A DNA stretch of 64,000 nt from a virus (lineage: Duplodnaviria > Heunggongvirae > Uroviricota > Caudoviricetes), in the IMG/VR virus record IMGVR_UViG_3300044445_000054; one strand, 5' to 3'. This document shows, one piece after another, positions 1,018 to 64,000 of the stretch. Both the position numbers and the translations under genes were made by a program. The first letter of the stretch is position 1. Every line of letters begins with the position of its first letter. The notes under the pieces are model-generated. The model ran no database searches, was not told the DNA's origin, and worked only from the letters and a program-made list of their open reading frames with translations.

Positions 1018-1093
1018 TATCGGTTGCGTTGAAACCCCGAGGGGTGAGGCCCTTCTACAGGCCGGATCAGATCATGCAAATCTCCATTTAGAT

Positions 1094-1109
1094 ACTACAG
1101 TGTAAGATT
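1094..1109. promoter_or_regulatory. operator-type palindrome TACTACAGTGTAAGATT (TTYTAC-AGN-GTARAA family), approximate coordinates
   Basis: ATACTACAG|TGTAAGAT, flanked by CTCCA...TGGAG. Same core as the elements at 2.1, 34.2, 40.2 and 48.6 kb. Lies in the 5' region of the 355..1017 gene. Confidence 0.4.
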
Positions 1110-1115
1110 GGAGTG

Positions 1116-1440
1116 GCCCGTTTTTGTGATCGGTGGGCCAAGCCGCCGGTGGGTCAGGCTGCGAGAGCCATGACCTCCGAGGAGTCGTTGTCGTTGGCGT
1201 TTATTCTACACCGCAAGGAAGCTCGATCCTAGTTCGCCCCCCAACAGAGCAAGCGGGCAGTTCGAGGAGAGTTTTGCACCATGCCCGCCGGGAGTCGAAC
1301 CCGTTTCGGTTGGGGTCACGATCCCCGCTGCACTCTCTGGCCGACCGTTGGCCTTTGCTGACCGCTTGCTCTGGTGGAGGCGGCGGGTACCGCCCCCGCG
1401 TCACTCCCAGCAGTCCGGCCTTGCGACCGGACGCCTGATC
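1116..1440 (-). ncRNA. ssrA: tmRNA-like gene (permuted two-piece type), boundaries approximate
   Basis: Minus-sense 1198->1154 reads GCCAACGACAACGACTCCTCGGAGGTCATGGCTCTCGCAGCCTGA = ANDNDSSEVMALAA*, a tmRNA-tag-like peptide. Upstream at about 1241 is GGGGGGCGAACUAGGAUCGAGC, resembling a tmRNA 5' end. Further upstream, at about 1399->1372, is GCGGG-GGCGGUA-CCCGC-CGCCUCC-ACCA: a T-arm-like stem, an acceptor 3' strand and an encoded ACCA. CGCCUCC pairs with GGGGGCG, giving G3-U70. Between the two pieces is an internal anticodon arm (anticodon CGU) plus a canonical GGUUCGACUCC T-arm. Confidence 0.5.
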
Positions 1441-1733
1441 TACGCCACCCGACGCAAGCGCGCAAGATGCAAGTTGTCGATTTCGCGGTAGACCACCTCG
1501 TTCCACTCCTTCACGGGACGGGCGTAGGTGATGCCGCGCTCCGCCAAGGCATAGAAGTCGGGGCCGCCGATGCGGCGATAGACCACAAGGGTCTCCAGCG
1601 GCTCGCTGGTGTGGAGGGTGTGACCCACGACCTCGTAGATGCCGCCTTTGTAATGCTGCCACACGCTGTAGAGTGGGAACTTCGATCGGGCGAGGTCGAG
1701 CAGGTTGCCCAGCTCATCAGTTGTCAGTTTCAA
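1440..1733 (-). CDS. DUF1653-like protein
   Basis: Motif FPLYSVWQHYKGGIYEVVGHTLHTSEPLETLVVYR matches the YxHYKGG signature of DUF1653. Probable TTG start overlapping the stop of the upstream gene (TTGA). Confidence 0.5.
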   Translation of the reverse strand: MKLTTDELGNLLDLARSKFPLYSVWQHYKGGIYEVVGHTLHTSEPLETLVVYRRIGGPDFYALAERGITYARPVKEWNEVVYREIDNLHLARLRRVA

Positions 1734-3859: not shown

Positions 3860-4028
3860 GTCGGCATCTCCCTGTCGGTGTCATGAGCGCGTTCAGGCAT
3901 TCTTCCTTGGCCTCGGCGTGCCACGCGCGGGCGGCCTGCTGCGGCGTGTTGTAGAAGGCAAGGACGCGCAGCTCGATCGAGGCGTAGTCCGCCTCTAGGA
4001 AATCTCCGGGGCATCGTTCATCAGGCAT
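3852..4028 (-). CDS. small hypothetical protein (~58 aa), not in the ORF track
   Basis: MPDERCPGDFLEADYASIELRVLAFYNTPQQAARAWHAEAKEECLNALMTPTGRCRRD. Strong SD GCAGGAGGATATT before the ATG. Its stop overlaps the helicase GTG start (coupling). Start coordinate approximate. Confidence 0.4.
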   Translation of the reverse strand: MPDERCPGDFLEADYASIELRVLAFYNTPQQAARAWHAEAKEECLNALMTPTGRCRRD

Positions 4029-4131: not shown

Positions 4132-5010
4132 TCAGGGTCGGCCTAGCGTGGACAACATCGGAAAGTTGTCTCGCATCCGCCGTTCGTTCTCCTCGATATG
4201 CTCGTGCATCATCCGAGCTACCATCGGGACTTCGTCGTGATGGACTGTCACCTTGAAGTTGTCCGTCGAGTTCGGGTGAGGCTTGACGATCGAGAGCGCC
4301 AGCTCCTTGGCTATGCGTTCGGCCAGCCGCTTCGGGTAGACAAACTCGCCGCCCCGCTTGCGCAGTAGCTCGCTCAGATCGGTGGCTTCCAAAGGCTTGC
4401 GTGTCATCAGCGTTATTGGGCCACCCACGTTCATCGTCCGAGATGTGCCATGATCGAACACCAGCGGCTGACCCGGCGTCGTCGCCCTGCTCCCAAGGTT
4501 CAGTTTCCAAGACGGGTACTTCTCCTTGAGGCGCGACCACCGTTCCAAGGAACGGACGAACTCGCTGTCGTTCACGACAGGCACGAGCCGGAAGACCTGC
4601 GCCCGCTTGTCGAGGTGGTAGTCCCGCGTGCGCAGGATGCGCTTGCCGTCGAACTCGATCTGGCAAATGCCGAAGTCGAACTCCTTGAGCGCATACGGCA
4701 TCACGATGATGTTGATCGGCGGACAGCCGGGGAACTTGGTCTCCAGCGACATCGAAATACGCTCGCCGTTGTAGGTCTTGTCGCTGACCACGTCGATGTC
4801 CTGCCAGCCGTCGGCAGCCATCGCCCTCCGAACACGGCGACCGTGCTCGACGTCAGTCGACTCGCACGGCACGAAGATGTCGATGTCCTTGACCTTCACG
4901 CCCTGCTCCCGGTCGCGGAGACAGCCACCGGCCATCACCGCATCGGGGTAGAGCACCTGCACCGAGGCGAGCGCGCTGCGCCACGCCTTCGGGATGTCCG
5001 CGACTTCCAT
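4132..5010 (-). CDS. CCA-adding enzyme / poly(A) polymerase-family nucleotidyltransferase (head domain)
   Basis: AGGCLRDREQGVKVKDIDIFVP matches the GGxVRD...DxDh signature of the tRNA nucleotidyltransferase family. AAGGGG SD. Confidence 0.6.
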   Translation of the reverse strand: MEVADIPKAWRSALASVQVLYPDAVMAGGCLRDREQGVKVKDIDIFVPCESTDVEHGRRVRRAMAADGWQDIDVVSDKTYNGERISMSLETKFPGCPPINIIVMPYALKEFDFGICQIEFDGKRILRTRDYHLDKRAQVFRLVPVVNDSEFVRSLERWSRLKEKYPSWKLNLGSRATTPGQPLVFDHGTSRTMNVGGPITLMTRKPLEATDLSELLRKRGGEFVYPKRLAERIAKELALSIVKPHPNSTDNFKVTVHHDEVPMVARMMHEHIEENERRMRDNFPMLSTLGRP

Positions 5011-5030
5011 GTCATTTCCCCTTCAGGAGA

Positions 5031-5696
5031 TTATCGAGCGATTGATGCGACGCCCGCAAGACCCGGTACTGGACCGAGTCCATCCGGCTGACGATCGAGG
5101 CCGGGAGCGGCGGGCGGGGCGGCGGTGCTGGGGCGGGTGTCATCGGCTTTCTCCAATCGGTGCTGAACGAGCTGGCCCTGACCCCATGCGAGGGAAGCCA
5201 GCGCGCGGTCATATAGGCGACGGTCGCCCTTGTTCATGACCTCCAAGACCAACTCCTTCTCGCGCAGGTAGGTCCGTGCGAAGCCGGGGTCGTTGGCCGC
5301 AATCGACGACGTGTTGTCGATCAAGTCGGCCAGCTTGATGTCCTGCGCCTGCGCGCTGATCGTCGCCAGCCGCTCGCGCTCCAGCTGCTTGCGCGCCGCC
5401 CGGTTGCCCTGCGAGGGCAGGACGAACTGGTCGGTCAGGTCGAAGACCATCGCGGCCACCGCGCTGCCGAAGCGGCGCTCGATCGTCTCGATCGAGACAG
5501 GCGTGTCTTCGACCACGTCGTGGAGGACGGCGGCGACCAGCTGGTCTTCGGTCACGATCGAGGCCGTTTCGTGGAGGATCGTCATCACCCGCAGCGGGTG
5601 AACGATGTAGGGCAGGCCGTCATACTTGCGCACCTGCCCGCCGTGCGCCACCGCGGCGAACGCGATGGCTTGGTCCAGTTGTTTCCAGCTCGTCAC
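5031..5696 (-). CDS. HD-domain (p)ppGpp hydrolase-like protein (SpoT/small-alarmone-hydrolase type)
   Basis: AHGGQVRKYDGLPYIVHPLRVMTILHE...AAVLHDVVEDT is nearly the SpoT N-terminal HD consensus. GTG start in GTGA overlap with the upstream gene, GAGGAGA SD. The N-terminal 156 codons of the track ORF are rejected as upstream read-through. Confidence 0.65.
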   Translation of the reverse strand: MTSWKQLDQAIAFAAVAHGGQVRKYDGLPYIVHPLRVMTILHETASIVTEDQLVAAVLHDVVEDTPVSIETIERRFGSAVAAMVFDLTDQFVLPSQGNRAARKQLERERLATISAQAQDIKLADLIDNTSSIAANDPGFARTYLREKELVLEVMNKGDRRLYDRALASLAWGQGQLVQHRLEKADDTRPSTAAPPAAPGLDRQPDGLGPVPGLAGVASIAR

Positions 5697-6076
5697 AGTT
5701 CGGTCTCCTCGTATTGCAGGCCGTTCAGCACCTTGACAGGCACCTCGAACTCGACCTGCGTCGACGTGCCGCCGCGGTTCTTCGGCATGAGATCGCGGCG
5801 CGGACTGGCGAAGATCGTCAGCTTGATAGCATCCATCTTGGCCTGCGACGACAGATGGTAGCGCTTGAACTCGATGACCGTGCCCTCTTCGAGAACGAAC
5901 TCGGTCATCCGTTCCGCCGCCTTGTAGTCCCATACCACACCGGGATTGTTGATGCGCCACGCCGCGTCGCGGACGTTGGTGTTGCCGTAAGCGTTCACGC
6001 AGTCGGCGATCACGATCTTCCACGAAGCGAGCAGGCGCAGCTTCGATTTGAGCGGCGGGATGTAGAGCTGGGTCAT
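5693..6076 (-). CDS. hypothetical protein (127 aa)
   Basis: Protein-like composition. ATGA overlap with the upstream gene, GTGA overlap with the downstream gene. Confidence 0.55.
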   Translation of the reverse strand: MTQLYIPPLKSKLRLLASWKIVIADCVNAYGNTNVRDAAWRINNPGVVWDYKAAERMTEFVLEEGTVIEFKRYHLSSQAKMDAIKLTIFASPRRDLMPKNRGGTSTQVEFEVPVKVLNGLQYEETEL

Positions 6077-6360
6077 TCCATTCCCTCCACCAGCGAAACA
6101 TCAGCGCACCGCAACACGAAGTTCGAGACGGTGCGGTGATGACCGTACGCCGCCGTGCCGCCATACTTCTTCATGGTCAGCTCCGGCGTCTCGCCCATCA
6201 GGATGGTGACCTGCACGGCCTCGTCGTCGGTCGCCGCTTGGTTGACCCGCGTCTTGTCGACGCGGAACACCGTGCCCTTCTGCATGCTCTGGCCGTAGCG
6301 GCAGTCGATGTCCTGCTCGGCGCGGAAGCGGTCACGGCGGTTGGGGATCAACAGTTTCAT
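6073..6360 (-). CDS. hypothetical protein (95 aa)
   Basis: Internal ATG (MKLLIPNRRDR) gives ATGA coupling with the upstream gene's stop. Confidence 0.45.
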   Translation of the reverse strand: MKLLIPNRRDRFRAEQDIDCRYGQSMQKGTVFRVDKTRVNQAATDDEAVQVTILMGETPELTMKKYGGTAAYGHHRTVSNFVLRCADVSLVEGME

Positions 6361-6908
6361 GGGCGCAGCTCCTGATAGCGGCGAATGAAGTTCGCCTTGG
6401 CCTGTCGGGGCGTCCACGACGTCAGGTCGACGCCGGGCATGTCCTTGAGGTGTTCATATTCGATGCCGTCGAGCACCGCCCACTTCTCTTTCAGCTCCTT
6501 GACGTACGTCGCCTCAAGCCCGAGCATCTGGGCGTCGGCGAGCTTGACCTCGGGGGCGAGCGGGTAGGTGAAGCCGAACCGGCGCGACATGGCCGACTCG
6601 ATCTTCACTTCCAGTTCCTTGAAGATCGGCAGCGCCGTCTTCAGGGGCGTCGGCAGGTCGTTGGTGAATGCCTCGGCCGTGTCGTGCATCAGCGCATCGA
6701 AAGCAAACGCCGGTGACACAATGTACGAGCAGTTCACGACGTGCTGTGCCACCGAATAGAACCTCGGCAGATGGCCGGCGAAGCGGCAGATGTTCGACAG
6801 CGGTGTGGCGATGTCGTCGATCGTCAGCGGGCATTCGTCAGGGTTGAGGTAGTCGAAATACGACCCGCTCAACATAGAAATGCCTGCGGTCAACGGAATA
6901 GCGTTCAT
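6357..6908 (-). CDS. HD-domain phosphohydrolase (YfbR-like 5'-deoxynucleotidase type)
   Basis: RFAGHLPRFYSVAQHV...ALMHDTAEAFTNDLPTPLK fits the H...HD...D metal-binding pattern. Confidence 0.6.
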   Translation of the reverse strand: MNAIPLTAGISMLSGSYFDYLNPDECPLTIDDIATPLSNICRFAGHLPRFYSVAQHVVNCSYIVSPAFAFDALMHDTAEAFTNDLPTPLKTALPIFKELEVKIESAMSRRFGFTYPLAPEVKLADAQMLGLEATYVKELKEKWAVLDGIEYEHLKDMPGVDLTSWTPRQAKANFIRRYQELRP

Positions 6909-7537
6909 GCCTGTTGCTCCTTGCGTGCTTGGTTCTCAGCCCACTTGCCCTGCTCGTCGTAGTCGAACGTTTTCTTGAACAGCGTGCCCGACGGGCCGTG
7001 GCGCATCACGATGCCCTCGGGGTCCATGAAGCCGGGCGCAAAGCGCGAGCCGTTGGCCTTGAGGTCGTCCATGATCCGCGCGAACTCCGCGCCCGGCTCG
7101 CCCATGTAGCCCTCCGCCAGCACCGGCACGACAGTAACGCGGTCCGGCAGGTCAGCACCTGTCCAGCGCGCCGTGTTGAACAGCGCGAACCGCTTATCTG
7201 GCAGGCCGTACTGGCGCTTGTTGATGCCCTTGCCGACCCACTCACCGTAGTGACGGCCCTCGCCGAGCATGGCGATGAGAGCCTTTTGGCTTTGATGCAC
7301 GAACTGAGCGAAGCCCGCGTTGTCCTTGTCCAAGGACAGCAGGTTGTTCCGGGACTGCGCGAAGATGCCGAGGCCACTCTCGCGGTCGTAGCCAAGGCGA
7401 TGTCGCTGCTGTTCTTCAGTGCCACGCTCGGTTGTCGGCGCGATCAACACGCAGGCGTTGGTGCCGTCGAGCTTCTCGGTGATCGCCCAGCCGTGGCTGA
7501 ACCGGGTGAGGCTTGCGAACTTCTCGAACATAATCAT
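6905..7537 (-). CDS. RNA ligase (Rnl2-like nucleotidyltransferase domain, PF09414-type)
   Basis: WAITEKLDGTNACVL matches motif I KxDGTN of Rnl2-type ligases. ~210 aa, typical of phage stand-alone RNA-ligase domains. ATG preceded by GGAGAA. Confidence 0.55.
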   Translation of the reverse strand: MIMFEKFASLTRFSHGWAITEKLDGTNACVLIAPTTERGTEEQQRHRLGYDRESGLGIFAQSRNNLLSLDKDNAGFAQFVHQSQKALIAMLGEGRHYGEWVGKGINKRQYGLPDKRFALFNTARWTGADLPDRVTVVPVLAEGYMGEPGAEFARIMDDLKANGSRFAPGFMDPEGIVMRHGPSGTLFKKTFDYDEQGKWAENQARKEQQA

Positions 7538-7578
7538 TCTCCATTGGAAGGTGGGCCGCCCGAAGGCGGCCCGGTAGG

Positions 7579-7884
7579 TCAGCTGGCGAACAGGAGCGCC
7601 GCGATGACGAGGATCACGGCGATGCTGCCGATGACCCACATCTTGAGCTTGCGGTTCGGCTCGAAGTCGCCCTCGCTCAGGTCGAAGATTTGGTACCAGA
7701 CGTAGTCGCTGGGGATCATCGACTGGCTCGGGTTGTCGTTGCTCAACACGCCGACGAACGGCTTGCCCGAAGGATTGAGGCTGAACCCGGTGCCGACATT
7801 GTCGTCGGCGTAGGCGGTGTAGACGAAAGGCTCGGTCGGCTCGGGAGTGAAGCCACCGGGACGGTCAACAGGGGTATCACGCAT
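7579..7884 (-). CDS. small membrane protein (C-terminal TM helix)
   Basis: MRDTPVDRPGG...KMWVIGSIAVILVIAALLFAS. GGAGAA SD. Confidence 0.45.
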   Translation of the reverse strand: MRDTPVDRPGGFTPEPTEPFVYTAYADDNVGTGFSLNPSGKPFVGVLSNDNPSQSMIPSDYVWYQIFDLSEGDFEPNRKLKMWVIGSIAVILVIAALLFAS

Positions 7885-11762: not shown

Positions 11763-11957
11763 CTAAAGGATGGGAGTGAAGATGTACGCACCGTGTTCGA
11801 TGCGATGCGCGCCGCCGAGGCGACCCGCTTTCTTGAGATTGAAGCACCGCTTGCGCAGCTTGTCGTCGCGCCACCGCAGCGTCACCCTGAAGTAACCCTG
11901 ATGCTTGGCGATCGCGACGATCTGATCGGCTGTGAGGCCCGAGCCTCGGTTGGTCAT
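11763..11957 (-). CDS. small hypothetical protein (64 aa)
   Basis: MTNRGSGLTADQIVAIAKHQGYFRVTLRWRDDKLRKRCFNLKK... ATGA overlap with the NTase gene stop. Confidence 0.4.
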   Translation of the reverse strand: MTNRGSGLTADQIVAIAKHQGYFRVTLRWRDDKLRKRCFNLKKAGRLGGAHRIEHGAYIFTPIL

Positions 11958-12928
11958 CTGATCTGCTCCATATACAGGGCCAGCACCGTGCGGTCGGCCA
12001 GCTTGTGATCGGACTTCTCGGGCAGGATGCTGTCTTCCGACGCGCGACCGACGGCGGCGACCAGTTCCTCCAGCTCGGCGGACACGTCGCTGTACGGGTA
12101 CATGCCCTGCTTGATGCCGAGCAGGTAGGCGGCGTCGGGCCGCGGGAACGTGATGTGCCCGGTCTCCAGCAGCTCGATCGCCTGCCCCGCCACGCGCACG
12201 GCGTGGCTCACGGCTTTCCAGTCGATGCCGTCGTTGTCCTTGGCCTTGCGGGCACGCTCGCCGTAGTTCTCCCAGACCTTGGTCCAGATTTTCTCGGCCT
12301 CTTCGATCGAGATCGTCATCGGCACCTTGCGGTCGCAGACATTCAGGTGCCAGCAGCTCTTGCCGCCGGGGTGCGGGATGTCCTCCCACATGACGTGCTC
12401 ACGACCGGCCGACCAGTCGTGCAGCTTGGCCTCGATCGCCGACATCTTGGCCGTGCGGGTCAGGCCCAGCTTGGCGATCGCGAGGAAGTCAAGCACGCCT
12501 CGCACCGCACCCATGCGCGAACCCTTGATGCCGTACTTCGCCGCCTGCCGGACGCAGTAGCCGACGAAGCCCTTGCACTGGCGGTTGAGCAGCTGCTTGC
12601 CGATGTTGCGGACATTCAACCACTCGGCGCTCGGGTAGTCGACGGGAGCGAACAGGATTTCGGTGGCGACGGTGTCGCCCTTCATCAGCATCTCGAAGAA
12701 CTTGGCGACGCTAAACGACTCGTCGTCGATCGCGTCCGCGGTGTTCTTGTCGGTGCCCTCCGCCTTGGACACGACGTTGCGGTTGATGTGGTTCTCGGGG
12801 CGGCCGAGCACGATCGCCTCACCGGACGGCAAGTGCACGCCCTTGAAGTCCTGATCGGACTGCGGTGTCGAGGTGCCGTACAGGTGCGAGCCGTGGCGGA
12901 TGCGGACGAGTTGACGGACGGGTTTCAT
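11954..12928 (-). CDS. Pol-beta-superfamily nucleotidyltransferase (MNT/ANT-like motif), function unknown
   Basis: RHGSHLYGTSTPQSDQDFKGV fits GSx9-11DxD. 325 aa with a C-terminal helical domain. GGAGAA SD before MKPV. Confidence 0.5.
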   Translation of the reverse strand: MKPVRQLVRIRHGSHLYGTSTPQSDQDFKGVHLPSGEAIVLGRPENHINRNVVSKAEGTDKNTADAIDDESFSVAKFFEMLMKGDTVATEILFAPVDYPSAEWLNVRNIGKQLLNRQCKGFVGYCVRQAAKYGIKGSRMGAVRGVLDFLAIAKLGLTRTAKMSAIEAKLHDWSAGREHVMWEDIPHPGGKSCWHLNVCDRKVPMTISIEEAEKIWTKVWENYGERARKAKDNDGIDWKAVSHAVRVAGQAIELLETGHITFPRPDAAYLLGIKQGMYPYSDVSAELEELVAAVGRASEDSILPEKSDHKLADRTVLALYMEQIR

Positions 12929-12995
12929 GTGGTGTTCTCCAATAGGCATGAAGAAGGGGCCGAGCGGCCCCTTCAACATCAACAATGTGCTGGAC

Positions 12996-13238
12996 TTACT
13001 TGTCGTGGACCTTGACCACGACGGCGTCCTTCGGGGCACCTTCCTTGTCGAGGCCATCGCTGATGATCTCGACCTTGGTGCCGCGCTTGATGCCTTCGAG
13101 GCCGTCCTTGATCGTCGCCTGGATGTGGCGACCGTCGTGCAGTTCGAGAAACGCGTAGCCGTCGTTGGCATCCGTCACGCGGAACACCTTCTGCGCCTCG
13201 GCAGGCTTCGAGGTCGTCGGGGTGGGGGCATCTGCCAT
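12996..13238 (-). CDS. small hypothetical protein (80 aa)
   Basis: MADAPTPTTSKPAEAQKVFRVTDANDGYAFLELHDGRHIQATIKDG... GGAGAG SD. Confidence 0.45.
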   Translation of the reverse strand: MADAPTPTTSKPAEAQKVFRVTDANDGYAFLELHDGRHIQATIKDGLEGIKRGTKVEIISDGLDKEGAPKDAVVVKVHDK

Positions 13239-13239
13239 G

Positions 13240-13539
13240 TTACTCTCCAATCTTCGAGGACGTAATTGATATTCGCATCTCTGCCTCGTGTCGAGAACCG
13301 TTGCCGGTCATGACCCAAGGGATAACATCATGGACCAGACCGGGCGTTCCGCCACTCAGCCAGAAGGTCATGATCGTGCCGTTCATTTCGATCGTGTCGA
13401 CCGTCAGTGCGGGGTCAACTTCCACCCCGTAGCTGGCGATCCCGCCACCATTTGCAACCGCCTGCGCCCACTCGCCGTCATAAAACAGGCGCTCGCCGAC
13501 GGTCTTGGGCGGGAAGTTGGAAGGAAATGCGACAGCCAT
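13240..13539 (-). CDS. hypothetical protein (99 aa)
   Basis: ATGA coupling with the upstream 434-aa gene. Confidence 0.45.
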   Translation of the reverse strand: MAVAFPSNFPPKTVGERLFYDGEWAQAVANGGGIASYGVEVDPALTVDTIEMNGTIMTFWLSGGTPGLVHDVIPWVMTGNGSRHEAEMRISITSSKIGE

Positions 13540-14850: not shown

Positions 14851-15279
14851 TTAGTCCTCGGTGATGACGGTCTGCGTCGTCAGCTTGGGGGTCACGTTCA
14901 CGCCAGTCGCGATGTTCGGGGTGATCGGACCCTTATACAAGAGCCGTCCCGCGCCCGACTGCGCCGTGCCGACGCCGAAGTGGGTGATCGTACCGTCGGC
15001 TGCGGTGCCGATCGGGAAGGAGATGTCCGCCGTCGGCGACACGCTGCCGCCCGTCACCGTCCAGCCGCCTGCCGTGCGCGCCACTGCGACGCGGGCGTAG
15101 CCGCCGTAGGCGACCTCGCTGGTCGACTGCGTGCCTGCCTCGCCGGGGTCGGCCTTGTGGAACGACACGTACAGGTTGGCGGCGGGCGAGATCGCTGCGT
15201 TGTCGGCGATGTTCGCCATCGCGACGCCGTTGAAGATCAGCTTGAGCAGATCGTTCTCGAATTGGTCAGACTTGGACAT
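14851..15279 (-). CDS. hypothetical protein (142 aa); by position and a tentatively remembered family match, possibly a fibre partner
   Basis: MSKSDQFENDLLKLIFNGVAMANIADNAA...LYVSFHKADPGEAG. I tentatively recall this family next to tail-fibre genes in alpha/beta-proteobacterial phages, but cannot verify that here. Confidence 0.45.
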   Translation of the reverse strand: MSKSDQFENDLLKLIFNGVAMANIADNAAISPAANLYVSFHKADPGEAGTQSTSEVAYGGYARVAVARTAGGWTVTGGSVSPTADISFPIGTAADGTITHFGVGTAQSGAGRLLYKGPITPNIATGVNVTPKLTTQTVITED

Positions 15280-56381: not shown

Positions 56382-56845
56382 TGAAGTACGAGCACCTTGT
56401 CGGCCGACCCTTCACGGGCATCGGCCGCGACGATTGCCTCAAGCTGATGCGCGACGTCTACCGCGACAACTTCGGCATCGAGATTTCCGACTACGCGCGC
56501 CCGCACGACTGGTCCTCGGACACGCTCGATCTCATGCGCCTGTGCTACCGGCGCGAGCGGTTCGAGATGATTACGGACTGGCGTCCGACGGACTTGCGGC
56601 CGGGCGATCTGCTATGTATGGCGATCGGCAGCAGCAATGCGAACCACTTCGCCGTGTACCTCGGCGACGACCAGATCATCCACCACCTGTACGGACGCAT
56701 GTCGTCGGTCGAGGTGTTCCGAGACTTCTACCGCAACTCGATCTGCTACGTGCTGCGGCACCCCGACGTCCCCAACCTCACGCCGGTCTACCCCGACGTG
56801 GACATTGCGAGTTTGCTCCGTGCTCGAAACAATCCTCCAGCCTGA
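56381..56845 (+). CDS. NlpC/P60-family tail peptidase (gpK-like half)
   Basis: Cys/His/His triad context: DDCLKL...NHFAVYLGDDQIIHH. Confidence 0.65.
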   Translation: MKYEHLVGRPFTGIGRDDCLKLMRDVYRDNFGIEISDYARPHDWSSDTLDLMRLCYRRERFEMITDWRPTDLRPGDLLCMAIGSSNANHFAVYLGDDQIIHHLYGRMSSVEVFRDFYRNSICYVLRHPDVPNLTPVYPDVDIASLLRARNNPPA

Positions 56846-57152
56846 CGACACCGAGGAGCGCTGCGGCCTCATCCTCAACGACGACTCGCTGGTCGAGATC
56901 GAGAACACCGCCGACGACAAGACGGGTAGCTACCACATGCGCGCCGAAGCGGTCCTGCCGTTCCTCGCCGCCGGGATGGTCAAGGGTACGTGGCACACGC
57001 ACCCGAACAGCGACCCGACCTTGAGTGGTGAGGATTATTCCGGCTTCCTTGATTGGCCCGGTCTGGTGCATAGCATCGTCGGCCGCCGCGATGGCGCGGT
57101 AGTCGTGACGACCTACAAGGTCGAGGACGGGCTGGTGATCGCATGCGACTAA
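56820..57152 (+). CDS. JAB/MPN (JAMM) metalloprotease-domain tail protein (gpK-like half)
   Basis: WHTHPNSDPTLSGED matches HxHx7Sx2D. Start approximate (GTG/TTG). Confidence 0.55.
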   Translation: MLETILQPDDTEERCGLILNDDSLVEIENTADDKTGSYHMRAEAVLPFLAAGMVKGTWHTHPNSDPTLSGEDYSGFLDWPGLVHSIVGRRDGAVVVTTYKVEDGLVIACD

Positions 57153-58992: not shown

Positions 58993-61900
58993 AATAACGT
59001 CTATACTCAAGAAGTTTTCTTCGATGCCGACGGCAGGCCAGTTCTTGACGCCCTCAAGAGCGTCGAGGGCTTCTTTCTTAACATCCAGAAAATCGTCTCT
59101 GGCATCGGCATTAAGTCGAAGGAAGACGCGCAGGCATGGGGCCTCCAGCTCTCCCAGAACCTCAGTGCGCTCAAGCAGGCACAGAGCGACATGCGTGCCA
59201 TCCAGCAGAACCGCGAGTCCTATCAAAATAAGAAGGGCTTCGGTCAGCTGGAAGCGGCCGAGAAGGAGTCCAACCGCAAGCGGCTGATCGAGTACAAGGT
59301 GCTGACCGCCGACAAGGCGCGGGAGGCAAAGGAAGAGGCCAGCGTCGAGAAGGCCTTGGCTCGCGAGGTTGCAGGCTACGAGGCCGAGCTGCTGCGCGCA
59401 CAGGTCGCCCAGCAGAAGGCCGCCGACCGCGCCGCCATCGCGTCGGCCAAGGAAGTCGCCGCCGCCCGCCGCGAGGCGGCGCAGGCCGCCGTCACCGCCA
59501 AGGCGCGCGGGATCACGAACCGTGACGACATCACCGCCGCCAAGGCTGCGAGCGACGCCCGGCTGGCGCAGCTGCGGCGCGAACGTGAGGCGATGGCCTC
59601 CAACGACGTGGCCGCCGCCCGTACCATCGCCGACCGGATCAATCTGGAGAAGGTGCTGGGACGCGAGCTGGACGCCACGCTCGCCAAGCTGAACCGGCAG
59701 ACGGTGGCCGAAGAGAAGGCGCGTGACGCCGCCAACCGGCGGCTGACGGGCGTCGCCTACAAGGATCAGGCGCTGCTCGCGCCGTCTGCCGTGCAGAAGA
59801 CGGCGGCGAACCTCGGCGCGGTTGGGGCGCGCGACTTCTATAAGAACGAGCAGGCGACGGCTCAGTCGATCCTGCGCGCCCGCATCGCCGACACTCGGTC
59901 GACGCTGGAGTCGCGCGTCGAGGCACAGCGCAATCTGGAGATCGCCAACCGGCGTGTGATCGAGGCCCAGAAGCTGGTCAACGAGGAGAACAAGGTCGCC
60001 GCTGCGCAGGAGCGCCAGCTGCGCGCCGCCGAGCGCCTCACCCTGCAGGAGCAGCGCACGACCGAGCAGGCGGCGCGTCGTGCATTGCAGGAGCAGCGCA
60101 ACGCCGAGTTCGAAGCGCGTCGTTCGCCGATGGGCCGGATCAAGACGGCGGCCACCAACCTCGGGCTGTACGGCGGCGTCGCGGGCGTCGGGTATGCCGC
60201 CTTTGGCGCAATCCAAGGCGGGCTGAGCGAAGTCATCCAGATGGAAGACGAGCTGGCCAAGCTGCAAGCGATCGCCAACGCCACGGAGCCGCAGCTTCAG
60301 AAGATGAAGTCGGCGATCTACAGCATCGGCGAGGCGTCGCGCTTCTCCAACGTCGATCTCGCCAAGGTGGCGCAGACGCTGGCACAGGCCGGTGTGACCG
60401 CGGGCGACATGCAGAAGGTGCTGTCCAGCGTCACCACGCTGGCGACCGCGTCCGGCTCCACGCCTGACGAGGCCGTGAACCTCGTCACGTCGGCGCTCGG
60501 CGCGTTCCAGCTCCAGTCGAGCGAGGCAGCGCGCATCGCCGACCTGATGACGTCGGCCCTGAACCGCACCAAGCTCACCGTGCAGCAGACCGGCCAGGCG
60601 ATCCAGTACGTCGGTGCCACCGCGTTCGAGCAGAACATCAGCCTCGAACAGCTGCTCGCCACCGTCGGTGCCATCGCGCAGGCAGGTGTTCGGTCCGGCT
60701 CGACGATCGGTACGGGCTTCCGCCAGTTCCTCGTCGATCTCCAGACGCCCTCAACCAAGTTGCAGGCTCAGCTCGACGCCGTCGGGCTGTCAGCGGCGCA
60801 GGTCAACGTCGCCGTCCGCGGCCTGCCCGCGGTCCTGAAGTCGCTGAACGAGGCGGGCTTCGGGGCGGCACAGGCGTATGGCGGGCTGGAGACGCGCGCG
60901 GCGGCCTTCTACCTTGTCGCCAAGAACAACACCGACATCATGGATCAGCTCCAGATGTCGTTCGCCCAGCAGGGCGCGGCGGCGATCGCCAACGAGCGGG
61001 CGATGAACTCGCTCACGGCGCAGTGGCAGCGCTTCAAGAACATCCTGTCGAGCGGCTTTGCCGACAGCCTCGAAGTGCCGATGCGGTTCTTGCAGGACTT
61101 GCTCAAGCGCCTGTCGGATCGACAGCTGGAGCTGGACGCGGCGGCCGAGAAGCTGTCGCGCGCCGACAAGGGCGGGCTGGAGGGCTACCAGCAGGAGTAC
61201 GGCACGGTCAGCGGCGCGGTCGGCTATTCGCTGAACACCGCCGGTCGCGATGCGATGCAGCAGGCGGCCGACGACATCAAGTTCATCCTGAACGGCTTCG
61301 GGCTGACCCAGCTTGCGGGCGTCGAAGGCATCGGCGACCAGTGGATCGCCTATACGCAGAAGATCGCGGGCGCGAAGGATGCGACGGACGACTTCGCTAC
61401 GTCGGTGGCGATGAACAGCGAGAACGTCGAGGCGCAGTCCAACAAGATCAGCGAGCTGGACAAGGAAATGGGTCGCCTGCTGACGCAGCAGGATAGCCTC
61501 AAGGATGGCAGCACGCAGGTCTCGGTCGAGACCGTGAACCTGACCTCGCGCTTCCAAGGGCTGGCCAAGTTCCTCACCAACGCCAAGGACAAGTACGGCG
61601 ACCTGATGCAGGCGATGCAGCGGTATCGCCAAGAGGCATTGCAGACGCAGAACGCCTATCTCAACAGCCAGATTTCGACGTTCGGCGAGCAGGCCAGCAT
61701 GGCGCAGGGCCGCGCCACGACGCTCGCCAATGAGGCGCTGAGCAGCGGACGCTACAACAACGACCCGCGCCTCATCCAGGCTCTCAAGCAGCCGCGACTT
61801 CTCGGCAACGCCAGCTACATCGCCGATGCGGGTGAGACGCGCAACGACCCGGTGCTGCGCGAGCTGAGCAAGAACGTCGGCACGCTCGCAATGGCGACGG

Positions 61901-64000
61901 CCGAGCAGAACATCGCGCGGCAGCAGCGGGACAGCGTTCGCACGCAGGCGACCACCGGCGGCCAGTCGCTGGAGCAGCGCACGCTGGCGAGCGAGAGCGC
62001 GCTGACCAAGTTCACCAGCCTGTCGCAGGACGAGCAGAGGGCACAGGCTCCCGCGCTGCGGGCACAGGTTCAGGCGATCGCTTCCGAGACCGCAGCGCGG
62101 CTCGCCAACCCGAAGACCGCCGACGCCGCCCGTGCGACGCTCAGGACGTGGGAGGTGCGTGCCAACGCCGTGCTCAAGGGCGTGGACGCTGCGCTGGCCC
62201 CGACGAAGGGTGAGATCAAAGCCGCCGCGGCTGCAGAGCGGGAGCGCAAGGCGTCCGAGCGGACGGCCAGCCGTAACGAGACGCTGGTCACGCAGGCCGA
62301 CATCGACAAGTTCGGGCAAGACCTCGGGCTGACGCTCGGCAGCGGCGTCCGCACCAAGGCGGAGCAGAACAGCCTGCACGCACGCGGTGTCACGCGCGCG
62401 ACGGGTGATACCTCGTCGCACTCGAACGGCGGTGTTGCCCGCGACTTCGGCGTGCGTGGGCTAGACGACGGAGCGGCCGAGCGGATGGCCGCCACGCTCC
62501 GTGCCCAGTACCGCGCCGCGGGGATCGAGGCGCGGGTCAAGTATGAGCGCGGCGGGCCGAACGATGGCACCGGCCGCCACATCCACGTCGACGTTCGCAA
62601 GGGCGCGAAGCGTCGCAGCGATCGTAGCGAGGAGTTGCAGGACAACAACGAGCTGGACATCGCTCGGTCGCAGTCGTCGCTCGACGAAGAAGACGTGAAG
62701 ATCAAGCTCAAGGACGTTGCGCAGGCGAGCCAAGATACGTTCGACGCGGCGACCAAGGCGGCCCGCGCCGCGCTCGACAAGCTCAACGGCGGCCTCGAAA
62801 GCCTCGCGCTGCAAGAACTGGCGACCAGCGGTGTTGCGCCCGGCACGCCCGAGTTCTCGGCCAAGCTGTTGCAGGTCCGTCAGTCGATCGCCCAGAACAA
62901 GGCCGAGTTCGAGCAGAAGATTGCCGACGCGATCATCAAGAGCACCGAAGCGCAGATCGAGTCGGCGCAGACGGCGTTCGACCAGCAGACCTCCGGCGCG
63001 GCGGGCACGCTGGCATATTCGCAGGCGAGCGCGGGTGGGCTGGAAGCCTACTCGCTGCGCAACCGTGTGCCCGACTACGTCAAGCAGCTGGCGAACGACC
63101 GGATTGGTGCGGGTCAAGAGAACCTCGCGCGCGTTCAGTACGCCGCCCTGCCTTCGCAGATTGCCGCGCAGCAGGCCGCCATCGCCGCGGCGATCGCTAC
63201 CTCCGACAAGGAGGGCGTGACCGAGCAGACGCAGGCCAAGATCGCGGGCATGAACGTCGAGCTGGAGAAGCTGATCGCGAACCGCGAGGCGCTGGCGGCG
63301 CAGCTCGGCGCGGGCGGACTGGTGCCGACCACCTTGGGTGCAGGACTTGAGCAGGCCATTCAGGCGTTCCGTCAGGCGAACGTGCTGGGCAACACCTTCA
63401 GCCAAGACCTCATCATGAACATGGGCGGGGCGCTGGAACAGGTCAACGGCGGTCTGACGAGCATGTTCACGTCGATCATCGAAGGCTCGTCGTCGGCGCT
63501 CGGTGCCTTCGCCAGCTTCTCGAAGGGCATCATGGCCTACATGGTGCAGATCGCGGCGAAGGCCGTGGCGACCAAGCTGATCGGCCTGCTGCTCAACTTC
63601 GCGAGCATCGGCGTCGGCGGGACAGCGTCGGGCGGCGGCAACGCCGCGGCCTCCGGCAGCGCAGGTAGTGTGTCGCTCGGCGGGCGCAGCGTGGTCCCAT
63701 TCGTCAGCAACTTCAAGGGCGGCCCAATCACCGGCTACGAGCGCGGCGGCGAGGTCATGAATGGCTCGCGCAGCCGCGACAGCGTCAACTCCAAGCTGGC
63801 GCGCGGCGAGTTCGTCATGCAGAACTCGGCCGTCGACAGCGTTGGCACCGAGTTCATGGCACAGCTCAACCAGCACGGCGCGCGTGCGCTGGATGGATTG
63901 CAGGCGATGCCGAAGCTCGATATGCAGACGAAGACCGAGACCAACGTCTGGGTGGTGCCGGGTGATCGGCCGCAGACGATGGGTCCGAACGACGTCAAGC
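58987..64000 (+). CDS. tail tape-measure protein, partial (runs off the window end), with embedded M15/VanY-like peptidase motif
   Basis: Open frame, translated by eye over 5 kb: MANNVYTQEVFFDADGRPV..., Ala/Gln/Glu-rich coiled coil. TP901-type core ...MKSAIYSIGEASRFSNVDLAKVAQTLAQAGVTAGDMQKVLSSVTTLATASGSTPDEAVNLVTSALGAFQL... Around 62.4-62.6 kb: SSHSNGGVARD...GRHIHVDV, an H-x-D ... HxH zinc-peptidase pattern. No stop up to 64000, so not in the ORF track. Confidence 0.6.
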   Translation, partial: MANNVYTQEVFFDADGRPVLDALKSVEGFFLNIQKIVSGIGIKSKEDAQAWGLQLSQNLSALKQAQSDMRAIQQNRESYQNKKGFGQLEAAEKESNRKRLIEYKVLTADKAREAKEEASVEKALAREVAGYEAELLRAQVAQQKAADRAAIASAKEVAAARREAAQAAVTAKARGITNRDDITAAKAASDARLAQLRREREAMASNDVAAARTIADRINLEKVLGRELDATLAKLNRQTVAEEKARDAANRRLTGVAYKDQALLAPSAVQKTAANLGAVGARDFYKNEQATAQSILRARIADTRSTLESRVEAQRNLEIANRRVIEAQKLVNEENKVAAAQERQLRAAERLTLQEQRTTEQAARRALQEQRNAEFEARRSPMGRIKTAATNLGLYGGVAGVGYAAFGAIQGGLSEVIQMEDELAKLQAIANATEPQLQKMKSAIYSIGEASRFSNVDLAKVAQTLAQAGVTAGDMQKVLSSVTTLATASGSTPDEAVNLVTSALGAFQLQSSEAARIADLMTSALNRTKLTVQQTGQAIQYVGATAFEQNISLEQLLATVGAIAQAGVRSGSTIGTGFRQFLVDLQTPSTKLQAQLDAVGLSAAQVNVAVRGLPAVLKSLNEAGFGAAQAYGGLETRAAAFYLVAKNNTDIMDQLQMSFAQQGAAAIANERAMNSLTAQWQRFKNILSSGFADSLEVPMRFLQDLLKRLSDRQLELDAAAEKLSRADKGGLEGYQQEYGTVSGAVGYSLNTAGRDAMQQAADDIKFILNGFGLTQLAGVEGIGDQWIAYTQKIAGAKDATDDFATSVAMNSENVEAQSNKISELDKEMGRLLTQQDSLKDGSTQVSVETVNLTSRFQGLAKFLTNAKDKYGDLMQAMQRYRQEALQTQNAYLNSQISTFGEQASMAQGRATTLANEALSSGRYNNDPRLIQALKQPRLLGNASYIADAGETRNDPVLRELSKNVGTLAMATAEQNIARQQRDSVRTQATTGGQSLEQRTLASESALTKFTSLSQDEQRAQAPALRAQVQAIASETAARLANPKTADAARATLRTWEVRANAVLKGVDAALAPTKGEIKAAAAAERERKASERTASRNETLVTQADIDKFGQDLGLTLGSGVRTKAEQNSLHARGVTRATGDTSSHSNGGVARDFGVRGLDDGAAERMAATLRAQYRAAGIEARVKYERGGPNDGTGRHIHVDVRKGAKRRSDRSEELQDNNELDIARSQSSLDEEDVKIKLKDVAQASQDTFDAATKAARAALDKLNGGLESLALQELATSGVAPGTPEFSAKLLQVRQSIAQNKAEFEQKIADAIIKSTEAQIESAQTAFDQQTSGAAGTLAYSQASAGGLEAYSLRNRVPDYVKQLANDRIGAGQENLARVQYAALPSQIAAQQAAIAAAIATSDKEGVTEQTQAKIAGMNVELEKLIANREALAAQLGAGGLVPTTLGAGLEQAIQAFRQANVLGNTFSQDLIMNMGGALEQVNGGLTSMFTSIIEGSSSALGAFASFSKGIMAYMVQIAAKAVATKLIGLLLNFASIGVGGTASGGGNAAASGSAGSVSLGGRSVVPFVSNFKGGPITGYERGGEVMNGSRSRDSVNSKLARGEFVMQNSAVDSVGTEFMAQLNQHGARALDGLQAMPKLDMQTKTETNVWVVPGDRPQTMGPNDVK

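Follow-up and report, generated by a model that had tools for sequence, protein, structure and literature searches.

The 64,000-nucleotide (nt) stretch of viral DNA analyzed here (Caudoviricetes; IMG/VR record IMGVR_UViG_3300044445_000054), hereafter the window, carries on its minus strand a circularly permuted, alpha-type two-piece transfer-messenger RNA (tmRNA) gene, ssrA. Nested in the spacer between its two pieces lies a structured RNA module of about 90 nt with tRNA-like loops, which we call the twin T-loop element and which recurs in unrelated phages. As the best explanation for the locus as a whole, and a quite probable one, we propose a functional phage two-piece tmRNA with its own promoter and a nested structured RNA in its spacer. 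Taking the parts separately, a functional phage tmRNA is, judging from sequence conservation, very probable, and for an independent function of the nested module the odds seem even.

A permuted two-piece tmRNA gene

Scanning the whole window with Rfam gave exactly two matches above the curated cut-offs, both at this locus and on the minus strand. The alpha_tmRNA model (RF01849) reaches 51.9 bits (cut-off 50), with only model positions 89-166 aligned (the tRNA-like core), and the tmRNA_permuted model (RF04321) reaches 50.3 bits (cut-off 47) with the full model aligned. The acceptor piece comes first, followed by a 130-nt spacer and then by the coding piece, which is the permuted order (Table 1). 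The initial annotation, a reading of the letters alone, had proposed this alpha-type permutation and suggested covariance models as a check, and both models bear it out. The individual elements that it described are in place as well, namely the acceptor piece with CGCCUCC-ACCA and a GCGGG/CCCGC T-arm, the GGGGGCG strand that pairs with CGCCUCC through a G3-U70 wobble (acceptor pair 3:70, U-G, invariant in 9/9 full-length genes), and the minus-strand tag frame (1198->1154), which reads ANDNDSSEVMALAA* and is kept in 10/10 genes. The coding piece is short, measuring about 127 nt up to the end of the pseudoknot region.

The conservation of the gene and its tag and the covariation of its helices, which we establish here along with its identity, emerge from a comparison with relatives. 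These were gathered in two ways: a query with the helicase of the window yielded six viral contigs, and an alignment of the 220-amino-acid (aa) protein encoded next to the tmRNA yielded twelve metagenome contigs. Nine related contigs (L004, L005 (=L015), L006, L007 (=L017), L016, L018, L019, L020, and L022) carry a homologous tmRNA directly upstream of the 220-aa gene, with Rfam alpha_tmRNA scores of 53-75 bits, all above the cut-off. Their identity to the window amounts to 79-82% in the adjacent helicase or 41-78% in the 220-aa protein. Farther relatives (L008/L021, L009, and L023, with 40-47% identity in the 220-aa protein) gave no tmRNA match, and the syntenic place in L008, L009, and Achromobacter phage JWF has no room for one. 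The tmRNA gene therefore characterizes one phage clade.

For the covariation test, the nine full-length genes were aligned with their spacer interiors removed, and a structure written from the sequence (helix P2, T-arm, acceptor stem, and the stem closing the spacer) was compared with 500 shuffles and with controls in which the pairing partners were slid by 1-3 columns. Standard pairs fill 95.3% of the 297 cells, and 19 of the 33 pairs are changed on both sides. None of the 500 shuffles scored as high, and the slid controls were only 40-56% paired. The acceptor stem and T-arm are 100% paired in the 9 homologues, with two compensatory pairs each; L007 and L020 supply compensatory changes at acceptor-stem positions other than the invariant 3:70 pair. 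The 11 pairs of P2 are 91.9% paired, and five of them are changed on both sides. All ten tags comprise 14 codons with an ANDN start, an (L/R)AA* end, a variable middle, and synonymous differences. After the tag, a stem around a GCAACAGAA-type loop differs in sequence from homologue to homologue yet remains complementary in all ten, and by inspection the segment upstream of it can pair into the loop in the fashion of an H-type pseudoknot.

These patterns also bear on the suggestion that the region is a protein-coding exon or small gene with incidental RNA features. Two open reading frames (ORFs) from the mechanical ORF list do overlap it, one at 1133..1438 on the plus strand (101 aa) and one at 1201..1662 on the minus strand (153 aa). 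However, neither passes the GC3/GC2 coding filter of the window, the spacer lengths of the homologues preserve no reading frame, and conservation tracks base pairing instead of codons. We thus hold a coding origin to be vanishingly improbable.

The spacer and its nested RNA module

The spacers of the ten genes measure 130, 140, 72, 82, 45, 111, 78, 121, 132, and 54 nt. Each gene has a stem of 7-10 base pairs (bp) whose first nucleotide is the one that follows CCA, or an adjacent one, and which stops 4-5 nt short of G1. Because this closing stem is found in every gene and all ten of its pairs are compensated, the constant feature of the spacer is a hairpin that extends the acceptor stem. The interiors are unrelated among the homologues, except for those of the window and L019, which are 90% identical over 91 nt but have differing closing stems. 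Conversely, the window and L004 have the closing stem in common but not the interior. As a separate observation, a short string of the G(C)TTTAAC/GCTTAAC type is common to the otherwise unrelated spacers of L004, L005, L016, and L018, for which blastn-short finds no significant similarity.

The window spacer (1371->1242) contains, as the initial annotation had described, a GGGG-AUCGUGA-CCCC hairpin, the string GGUUCGACUCC, and a CGGGCAU strand. The string GGTTCGANTCC occurs once in the 64 kb, inside the spacer, against 0.14 occurrences expected, which indicates that the tRNA-like loop is a real feature of the module and not a product of chance. The existence, distribution, and fold of the module, which we establish here, follow from its occurrence elsewhere. 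Pattern scans of viral contigs with motifs common to the window and L019 brought up stand-alone copies in four unrelated uncultured viral lineages in all. In L026, a 39-kb contig, it lies on the opposite strand in the interval that separates a P22-like portal gene from the following gene; L028 (identical in L030, L032, and L036) has it between a Dam-type methyltransferase gene and small ORFs before the terminase genes; L029, a low-GC prophage-like contig, has it between a sigma-factor gene and a DUF3850/ASCH gene; and L034 has a copy too. Among cultured phages, blastn located the module, unannotated, in the Caulobacter phages RW, KcrB, RLK, and GB2A. In phage RW (L066, MK929790.1) the locus spans L066 2830-2930 and 2979-3072 and holds an annotated tRNA-Val with the module copy (56,808-56,901 in RW) about 60 nt downstream. 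That tRNA-Val is not called by ARAGORN and is enclosed by a perfect 11-bp stem, GGGCCGGGGCG...CGCCCCGGCCC.

A covariance model built from six sequences (R1) scores 98.1 bits on the window and 74.3 bits (E 2.5e-14) on the phage RW copy, which lay outside the seed; it found no second copy in the window or in the other loci scanned. Contig L031 was dismissed as a member, having a partial 3' motif and no R1 match, and a scan with the 5' motif for further members returned only coding sequences and one tRNA-Cys. RNAalifold folds the module into a 5' hairpin (P0), a terminal stem (P1), hairpin A, a short AAC-type linker, hairpin B, and a segment containing GG. Hairpin A consists of a 4-bp stem and a loop that reads UUCGANU in five of the seven members (UUCGAU in RW and AUCGUGA in the window), and hairpin B bears a UUCGAYN loop on a two-part stem. 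In this three-way fold, 93.4% of the cells of the seven unique members are paired and 10 pairs are changed on both sides, as scored on the same sequences from which the module structures were derived; none of 500 shuffles came as high, and the slid controls reached 29-50%. A four-way alternative, with 93.8% paired, adds a small hairpin C (GCA-NGG-UGC, 2-4 bp) with the conserved GG in its loop, for which RW supplies one compensatory change (A-U to U-A).

At E<=10, Rfam offers no family, tRNA included, for the spacer of the window (1246-1368) or the L026 copy, aside from two chance matches to long noncoding RNAs, and a literature search for the conserved sequence strings of the module found nothing. 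A self-cleaving ribozyme, a riboswitch, and a T-box-like leader were each considered and set aside, as none had an Rfam match. A cis-regulatory role was likewise discarded, given that the L026 copy is antisense to its neighbors and that two copies lie inside a tmRNA spacer. The module defines a small, cross-phylum family of hitherto undescribed phage RNAs with tRNA-like loops.

The initial annotation had interpreted the same segment quite differently, as the 3' half of a tRNA-Thr(CGU) and thus the core or footprint of a phage attachment site, left by integration into a tRNA or ssrA gene or serving to reconstitute ssrA. This interpretation has some appeal: the segment contains a consensus GGUUCGACUCC hairpin followed by an acceptor-like strand, two Firmicutes metagenome-assembled genomes (MAGs) have genuine tRNA-Arg(CCG) genes whose 3' end is this same 21-mer, and tmRNA and tRNA genes are frequent integration sites (PMC4383910). 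However, the supposed anticodon arm is hairpin A of the conserved module, whose loop reads UUCGAGU, UUCGAUU, or UUCGAU in the other six members, so that the CGU is not conserved, and whose stem covaries (GGGG/CCCC to GCAG/CUGC). The supposed tRNA T-arm is hairpin B. The CGGGCAU strand, described as having no 5' partner, builds the outer stem of this hairpin and takes part in the small hairpin C; the module has its own 5' partner strands. ARAGORN, like Rfam, finds no tRNA in the spacer. A donor segment was also sought among bacterial genomes (one genome per species, 185,579 species, exact matches only). The strict pattern of anticodon arm plus T-arm had 0 matches, and the 21-mer (T-arm plus acceptor strand) had three, none alphaproteobacterial, namely the tRNA-Arg(CCG) genes of the two Firmicutes MAGs and a site in an Actinomycetota MAG that is not a tRNA. 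Moreover, no integrase was found among the ORFs tested, the gene content is of a lytic type with rIIA/rIIB, the relatives of about 83 kb resemble free phage genomes, and in other phages the module is found far from any tRNA or tmRNA. We consider the tRNA-half interpretation highly improbable and reject it.

When viral contigs were scanned for the exact 22-mer of the T-arm-like segment, the only match was in the unrelated contig L003; it was not counted as informative, as we judged it to be a shared tRNA-type 3' end. In this 94-kb viral contig (IMGVR_UViG_3300037264_000690), the 22-mer GGGTTCGACTCCCGGCGGGCAT ends a tRNA-sized segment (3935-4020) directly upstream of a tRNA-Asn, and neither ARAGORN nor Rfam calls that segment a tRNA.

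Several observations weigh against the proposal of a functional tmRNA with a nested structured RNA. As for the tmRNA, both Rfam scores lie barely over their cut-offs and the RF01849 alignment is confined to the tRNA-like core. ARAGORN, which had been suggested as a further check, calls neither a tmRNA nor a tRNA in the 64-kb window; it does call the permuted gene in the relatives L004 and L020. P2 and the resume codon are only 11-14 nt apart, in a stretch where the Rfam alignment has deletions, and the usual pseudoknot 1 thus appears to be lacking. Neither an intrinsic terminator nor a defined 3' end emerged from a generic promoter and terminator scan (950-1550). The window ORFs tested do not include a phage SmpB, which makes tmRNA function dependent on host compatibility. 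The marginal scores, the ARAGORN result, the apparent lack of pseudoknot 1, and the absence of the gene from that position in L008/L021, L009, L023, and phage JWF could also be taken as signs of a nonworking relic, decaying after its capture from a host chromosome. Such a relic is very unlikely in our view, since ten homologues retain the tag frame and every helix via compensatory changes, the alanine identity pair does not vary among the nine full-length genes, and all nine complete loci preserve the promoter-like motif. Retention of this kind is expected from purifying selection and not from decay.

As for the module, there are only seven unique members, and the three-way and four-way topologies fit them equally well. 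Folding of single sequences performs no better than shuffles (z -0.7 to -1.7), with minimum-energy structures that differ per member, and in the window the hairpin A loop (AUCGUGA) deviates from the consensus UUCGA. In eight of the ten homologues the spacer interior is a different one, which implies that the nested module is dispensable for the tmRNA. It is thus conceivable, though rather unlikely, that the tmRNA works while the interior of its spacer has no function, being a selfish or neutral insertion, a tRNA-derived mobile element, or a tolerated structured filler. The unrelated interiors of the eight other homologues (45-140 nt) would agree with this, as would the drifted hairpin A loop and the stand-alone copies, which have no partner gene in common; the sharing of only the stem between window and L004 and of only the interior between window and L019 suggests a cassette-like exchange. 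On the other hand, the module has been kept in phages ranging from GC-rich alphaproteobacterial to low-GC Firmicutes ones; four of its helices carry compensatory changes and the nucleotides of its loops and junctions hardly vary, which argues for selection on the module RNA itself. Between the window and L019 its identity is 90%, against 63% for the adjacent 220-aa protein, and neither terminal repeats nor a transposase were seen.

The phage genome and the flanks of the gene

The window is part of a genome of about 83 kb, and its GC content is even (61-68%). The coding strand changes at about 40 kb: between there and position 355 the genes lie on the minus strand, and beyond it they lie on the plus strand. 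Domain scans of the ORFs identified an SNF2-type helicase, a class I ribonucleotide reductase, an ATP-dependent DNA ligase, a prim-pol, rIIA, rIIB, an RNA ligase, two nucleotidyltransferases (one of the RlaP type), a SpoT-like HD hydrolase, a large terminase, and a capsid protein. Integrase, recombinase, SmpB, and Ro60 domains were absent from every window ORF tested; for integrase and recombinase domains, these were ORFs of at least 240 aa and many smaller ones. Among cultured phages, the helicase is most similar to that of Achromobacter phage JWF (43% identity), followed by that of Caulobacter phage Seuss (38%). At the nucleotide level, neither the region nor 20 kb of the window matched any of 50,697 phage genomes in blastn and megablast comparisons. 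The host is probably an alphaproteobacterium. On the minus strand, the tmRNA is flanked by a DUF1653 gene upstream (1856-1440) and by the conserved 220-aa gene downstream (1017->355). Given the rIIA/rIIB-type gene content and the lack of a detected integrase, the evidence supports a position within a lytic-type phage genome and not at a prophage edge.

This agrees with the initial annotation, which had placed the gene inside the phage on account of an operator motif on both flanks. Motifs of the same type are indeed found on both sides, TTGCGC-N17-TAGAT and TTGCAT-N16-TAGAAG, and they are probably what was meant. From their conservation, both would act as promoters. The first precedes the acceptor piece, whose 5' end we infer from it, and the TAG of its -10-like element also serves as stop codon for the DUF1653 ORF upstream. 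In 8/9 complete loci, TTGCGC/TTGACN-17-TAGAT/TAGGT stands at a fixed distance before the acceptor piece, and the ninth, L020, has the variant TTGACT-17-TAGGGC (L022 is cut off 5' of the T-arm and thus falls outside the nine). For the second site, the motif has two matches in the window against 0.10 expected, and it occupies the same place in relatives. A generic sigma-70 scan (950-1550) calls neither site.

Between the tmRNA and the 220-aa gene lies a conserved block (1052-1106, minus strand), found at the same place in L004-L007, L016, and L018. It consists of TTAC(A/C)C-N-GTAGT followed by GGAG-N6-ATG, which opens a mini-ORF of 2-6 codons (MI*, MILLGW*, MILSGL*...). The mini-ORF overlaps the TTGCAT -35-like hexamer, and a hairpin containing CTGTAGA comes after it. 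This block may be a promoter, a leader peptide, or both.

In several relatives, one or two tRNA genes sit directly 3' of the tmRNA, before the conserved promoter-like motif; the window has none. The site appears to be a hot spot at which tRNA-type genes come and go.

Just upstream of the tmRNA, genes related to RNA and nucleotide stress are clustered on the minus strand (4132-7639 and 11954-13171), which suggests a counter-defence module for translation and RNA repair. The 292-aa nucleotidyltransferase matched PDB sequences no better than expected by chance (best E 0.18) and had no NCBIfam match.

Two further observations concern the window at large. Small proteins encoded on the minus strand at 13240-13539 and 14851-15279 match Pfam families named for tail-fibre parts of Ralstonia podophage GP4 (the Gp77 adaptor and Gp80 fibre I), and they sit in the minus-strand block of replication and nucleotide metabolism instead of among the plus-strand structural genes. 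At 59000-64000 the AT skew is strongly positive (0.17-0.19) and no complete ORF is coding-like by GC3; this region is probably part of a very long plus-strand structural gene that runs past the end of the window.

Table 1. Features of the tmRNA locus, its surroundings, and related loci (window positions unless a contig is named)
Feature	Position	Strand	Basis or detail
Promoter-like site	1437..1465	minus	-35 TTGCGC (1465-1460), 17-nt spacer, -10 TAGATC (1442-1437)
Acceptor piece	1372..1432	minus	RF01849 and RF04321 above gathering score; covariation of P2, T-arm, and acceptor stem
Acceptor-piece 5' hairpin	1432-1413	minus	GUCCGGUC-GCAA-GGCCGGAC
Helix P2, 5' strands	1414-1403	minus	
T-arm	1399-1383	minus	GCGGG-GGCGGUA-CCCGC
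Acceptor 3' strand	1382-1376	minus	CGCCUCC
Encoded ACCA	1375-1372	minus	
Intervening sequence (130 nt)	1242..1371	minus	predicted to be absent from the mature two-piece tmRNA
Closing stem	1371-1362 x 1256-1247	minus	GAGCAAGCGG x CCGCUUGCUC; all 10 pairs with compensatory changes, 9 homologues
Nested structured RNA module (~90 nt)	1263..1353	minus	covariance model R1 and covariation
Module hairpin P0		minus	
Module stem P1		minus	GAGAGU/ACUCUC
Module hairpin A		minus	GGGG-AUCGUGA-CCCC
Module hairpin B		minus	CGGG-UUCGACU-CCCG inside CCG/CGG
Module GG-containing segment		minus	GCAUGGUGC
Leader before G1 (5 nt)	1246-1242	minus	UGUUG
Coding piece	1115..1241	minus	Rfam models, tag and helix conservation, post-tag stem
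Acceptor 5' strand	1241-1235	minus	GGGGGCG, forming the G3-U70 wobble
Segment after GGGGGCG		minus	AACUAGGAUCGA
Helix P2, 3' strands	1222-1210	minus	
Resume codon	1198	minus	GCC
Tag ANDNDSSEVMALAA	1198-1157	minus	frame GCC AAC GAC ... GCA GCC TGA
Tag stop	1156-1154	minus	TGA
Hairpin closing pseudoknot-like region	1139-1115	minus	GGCCC...GGGCC
Second promoter-like site	1052..1079	minus	TTGCAT-N16-TAGAAG, ahead of 220-aa gene; downstream limit of tmRNA unit
Nucleotidyltransferase	5010->4132	minus	
SpoT/RelA-type HD hydrolase domain	6164->5031	minus	
YfbR-like HD protein	6908->6357	minus	
RNA ligase	7639->6905	minus	
RlaP-type nucleotidyltransferase	13171->11954	minus	
tRNA-Leu (CAA) 3' of tmRNA	L005 8448-8521		ARAGORN
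tRNA-Tyr 3' of tmRNA	L014 59-146		ARAGORN
tRNA-Cys 3' of tmRNA	L016 911-996		ARAGORN
tRNA-Met 3' of tmRNA	L018 1428-1504		ARAGORN
tRNA-Met 3' of tmRNA	L020 2029-2105		ARAGORN
tRNA-Met and tRNA-Cys 3' of tmRNA	L022 227-303 and 313-384		ARAGORN

Proposed mechanism and comparison with known systems

By analogy with two-piece tmRNA biology (PMC11915505, PMC9004378), the locus would be transcribed as one precursor containing the acceptor piece, the 130-nt intervening sequence, and the coding piece. Host tRNA-processing enzymes would mature this precursor, with RNase P cutting at G1 (1241) and 3' trimming proceeding to the encoded CCA at 1372, and the spacer would be excised as in the Caulobacter two-piece tmRNA (PMC11915505, PMC9004378). 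The two pieces would then be held together by the acceptor stem and helix P2, be charged with alanine via G3-U70, and, with host SmpB, rescue stalled ribosomes during infection, tagging peptides with ANDNDSSEVMALAA. The excised spacer, closed by a stem of at least 10 bp, may persist as a separate, stem-protected small RNA, and the module released through this tmRNA processing could mimic tRNA and serve, for instance, as a decoy for, or a ligand of, proteins that recognize the T-arm or elbow of tRNA. More tentatively, and as a possibility more than an expectation, it may act on host readers of these parts, either as a decoy against defence nucleases that target tRNA or tmRNA or as a modulator of tRNA processing or modification. 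The module would then be the first member recognized in such a setting of a new class of phage tRNA-mimic RNAs with two T-loop hairpins and a GG loop, and in this clade it would be expressed by riding on tmRNA processing.

Among known systems, the alphaproteobacterial two-piece tmRNA (RF01849/RF04321; ssrA of Caulobacter crescentus) is alike in gene order, reduced T-loop (GGCGGUA), G3-U70 pair, encoded CCA, a P2 that joins the pieces, a tag of the ANDN...LAA kind, and a pseudoknot-like stem after the tag. In contrast, the window gene resides in a lytic-type phage, has a short coding piece (about 127 nt) that seems to leave no room for pseudoknot 1, aligns to RF01849 only in its tRNA-like core, and has a long spacer with a separate RNA module.

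Phages with a tmRNA of their own have been documented before: 402 of 18,146 phage genomes contain one, and 53 of the 133 unique sequences are permuted, mostly from marine phages (PMC9004378). A tmRNA database of 2025 lists 79 bacteriophage sequences (PMC11915505), and 2026 brought the announcement of a Caulobacter jumbo phage that carries one (PMC13459779). The statement in the initial annotation that a phage-borne two-piece tmRNA would be unusual was thus too strong. The known phage examples (OM43 phage Melnitz and pelagimyophages; PMC9004378) similarly have a complete permuted ssrA, no integrase, and a location near early or middle genes, and a common role in the upkeep of the hijacked translation apparatus is presumed. 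They are mostly from marine myophages, however, and the Melnitz ssrA is coupled to a glutamine riboswitch, whereas the window gene belongs to a phage clade of about 83 kb (helicase 38-43% to JWF/Seuss) and holds a nested tRNA-like RNA. The tmRNA is therefore of an already documented kind, and the nested RNA is the part that merits follow-up.

For this nested RNA, two comparisons are instructive. In GCA-2688965 sp002688965.2, the spacer of the permuted tmRNA holds an intact tRNA-Ala, which was called a unique feature (PMC11915505). There too, a permuted spacer houses a second RNA of tRNA type that the same processing enzymes would release. Unlike that insert, the module of the window is not a tRNA (ARAGORN and Rfam are silent), has no anticodon arm and no CCA/aminoacyl end, and belongs to a family that also exists independently. 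The second comparison is with the YrlA-type Y RNAs (PMC4201824), likewise small RNAs of bacteria and phages that mimic parts of tRNA; their tRNA-like domain is the nearest analogue of the module in design. In the four-way model, the T-arm-like hairpin, long stem-loop, small GG-loop hairpin, and terminal stem recall the T/acceptor-like/D order of YrlA. In contrast to YrlA, the module matches no Rfam family at E<=10, does not match the Ro-binding motif GNCGAA(N)G exactly, and has a second hairpin that also bears a T-loop-like loop. TROVE/Ro60 was found neither among the window ORFs tested nor among the neighbors of the L026, L028, L029, L034, and RW copies. Membership in the YrlA/Y RNA group is not supported, and the likeness serves as a lead only.

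In short, the tmRNA adds a soil- or plant-associated clade of lytic-type phages to those that carry their own ribosome-rescue RNA. The nearby RNA ligase, nucleotidyltransferases, and SpoT-like hydrolase fit the picture of phages that protect or rebuild the translation apparatus in infection. If the module is released as we propose, the excised spacer of a permuted tmRNA could serve as an expression site for another structured RNA, and one phage gene would give three RNAs. The copies in the cultured Caulobacter phages RW, KcrB, RLK, and GB2A make the module testable in a model host.

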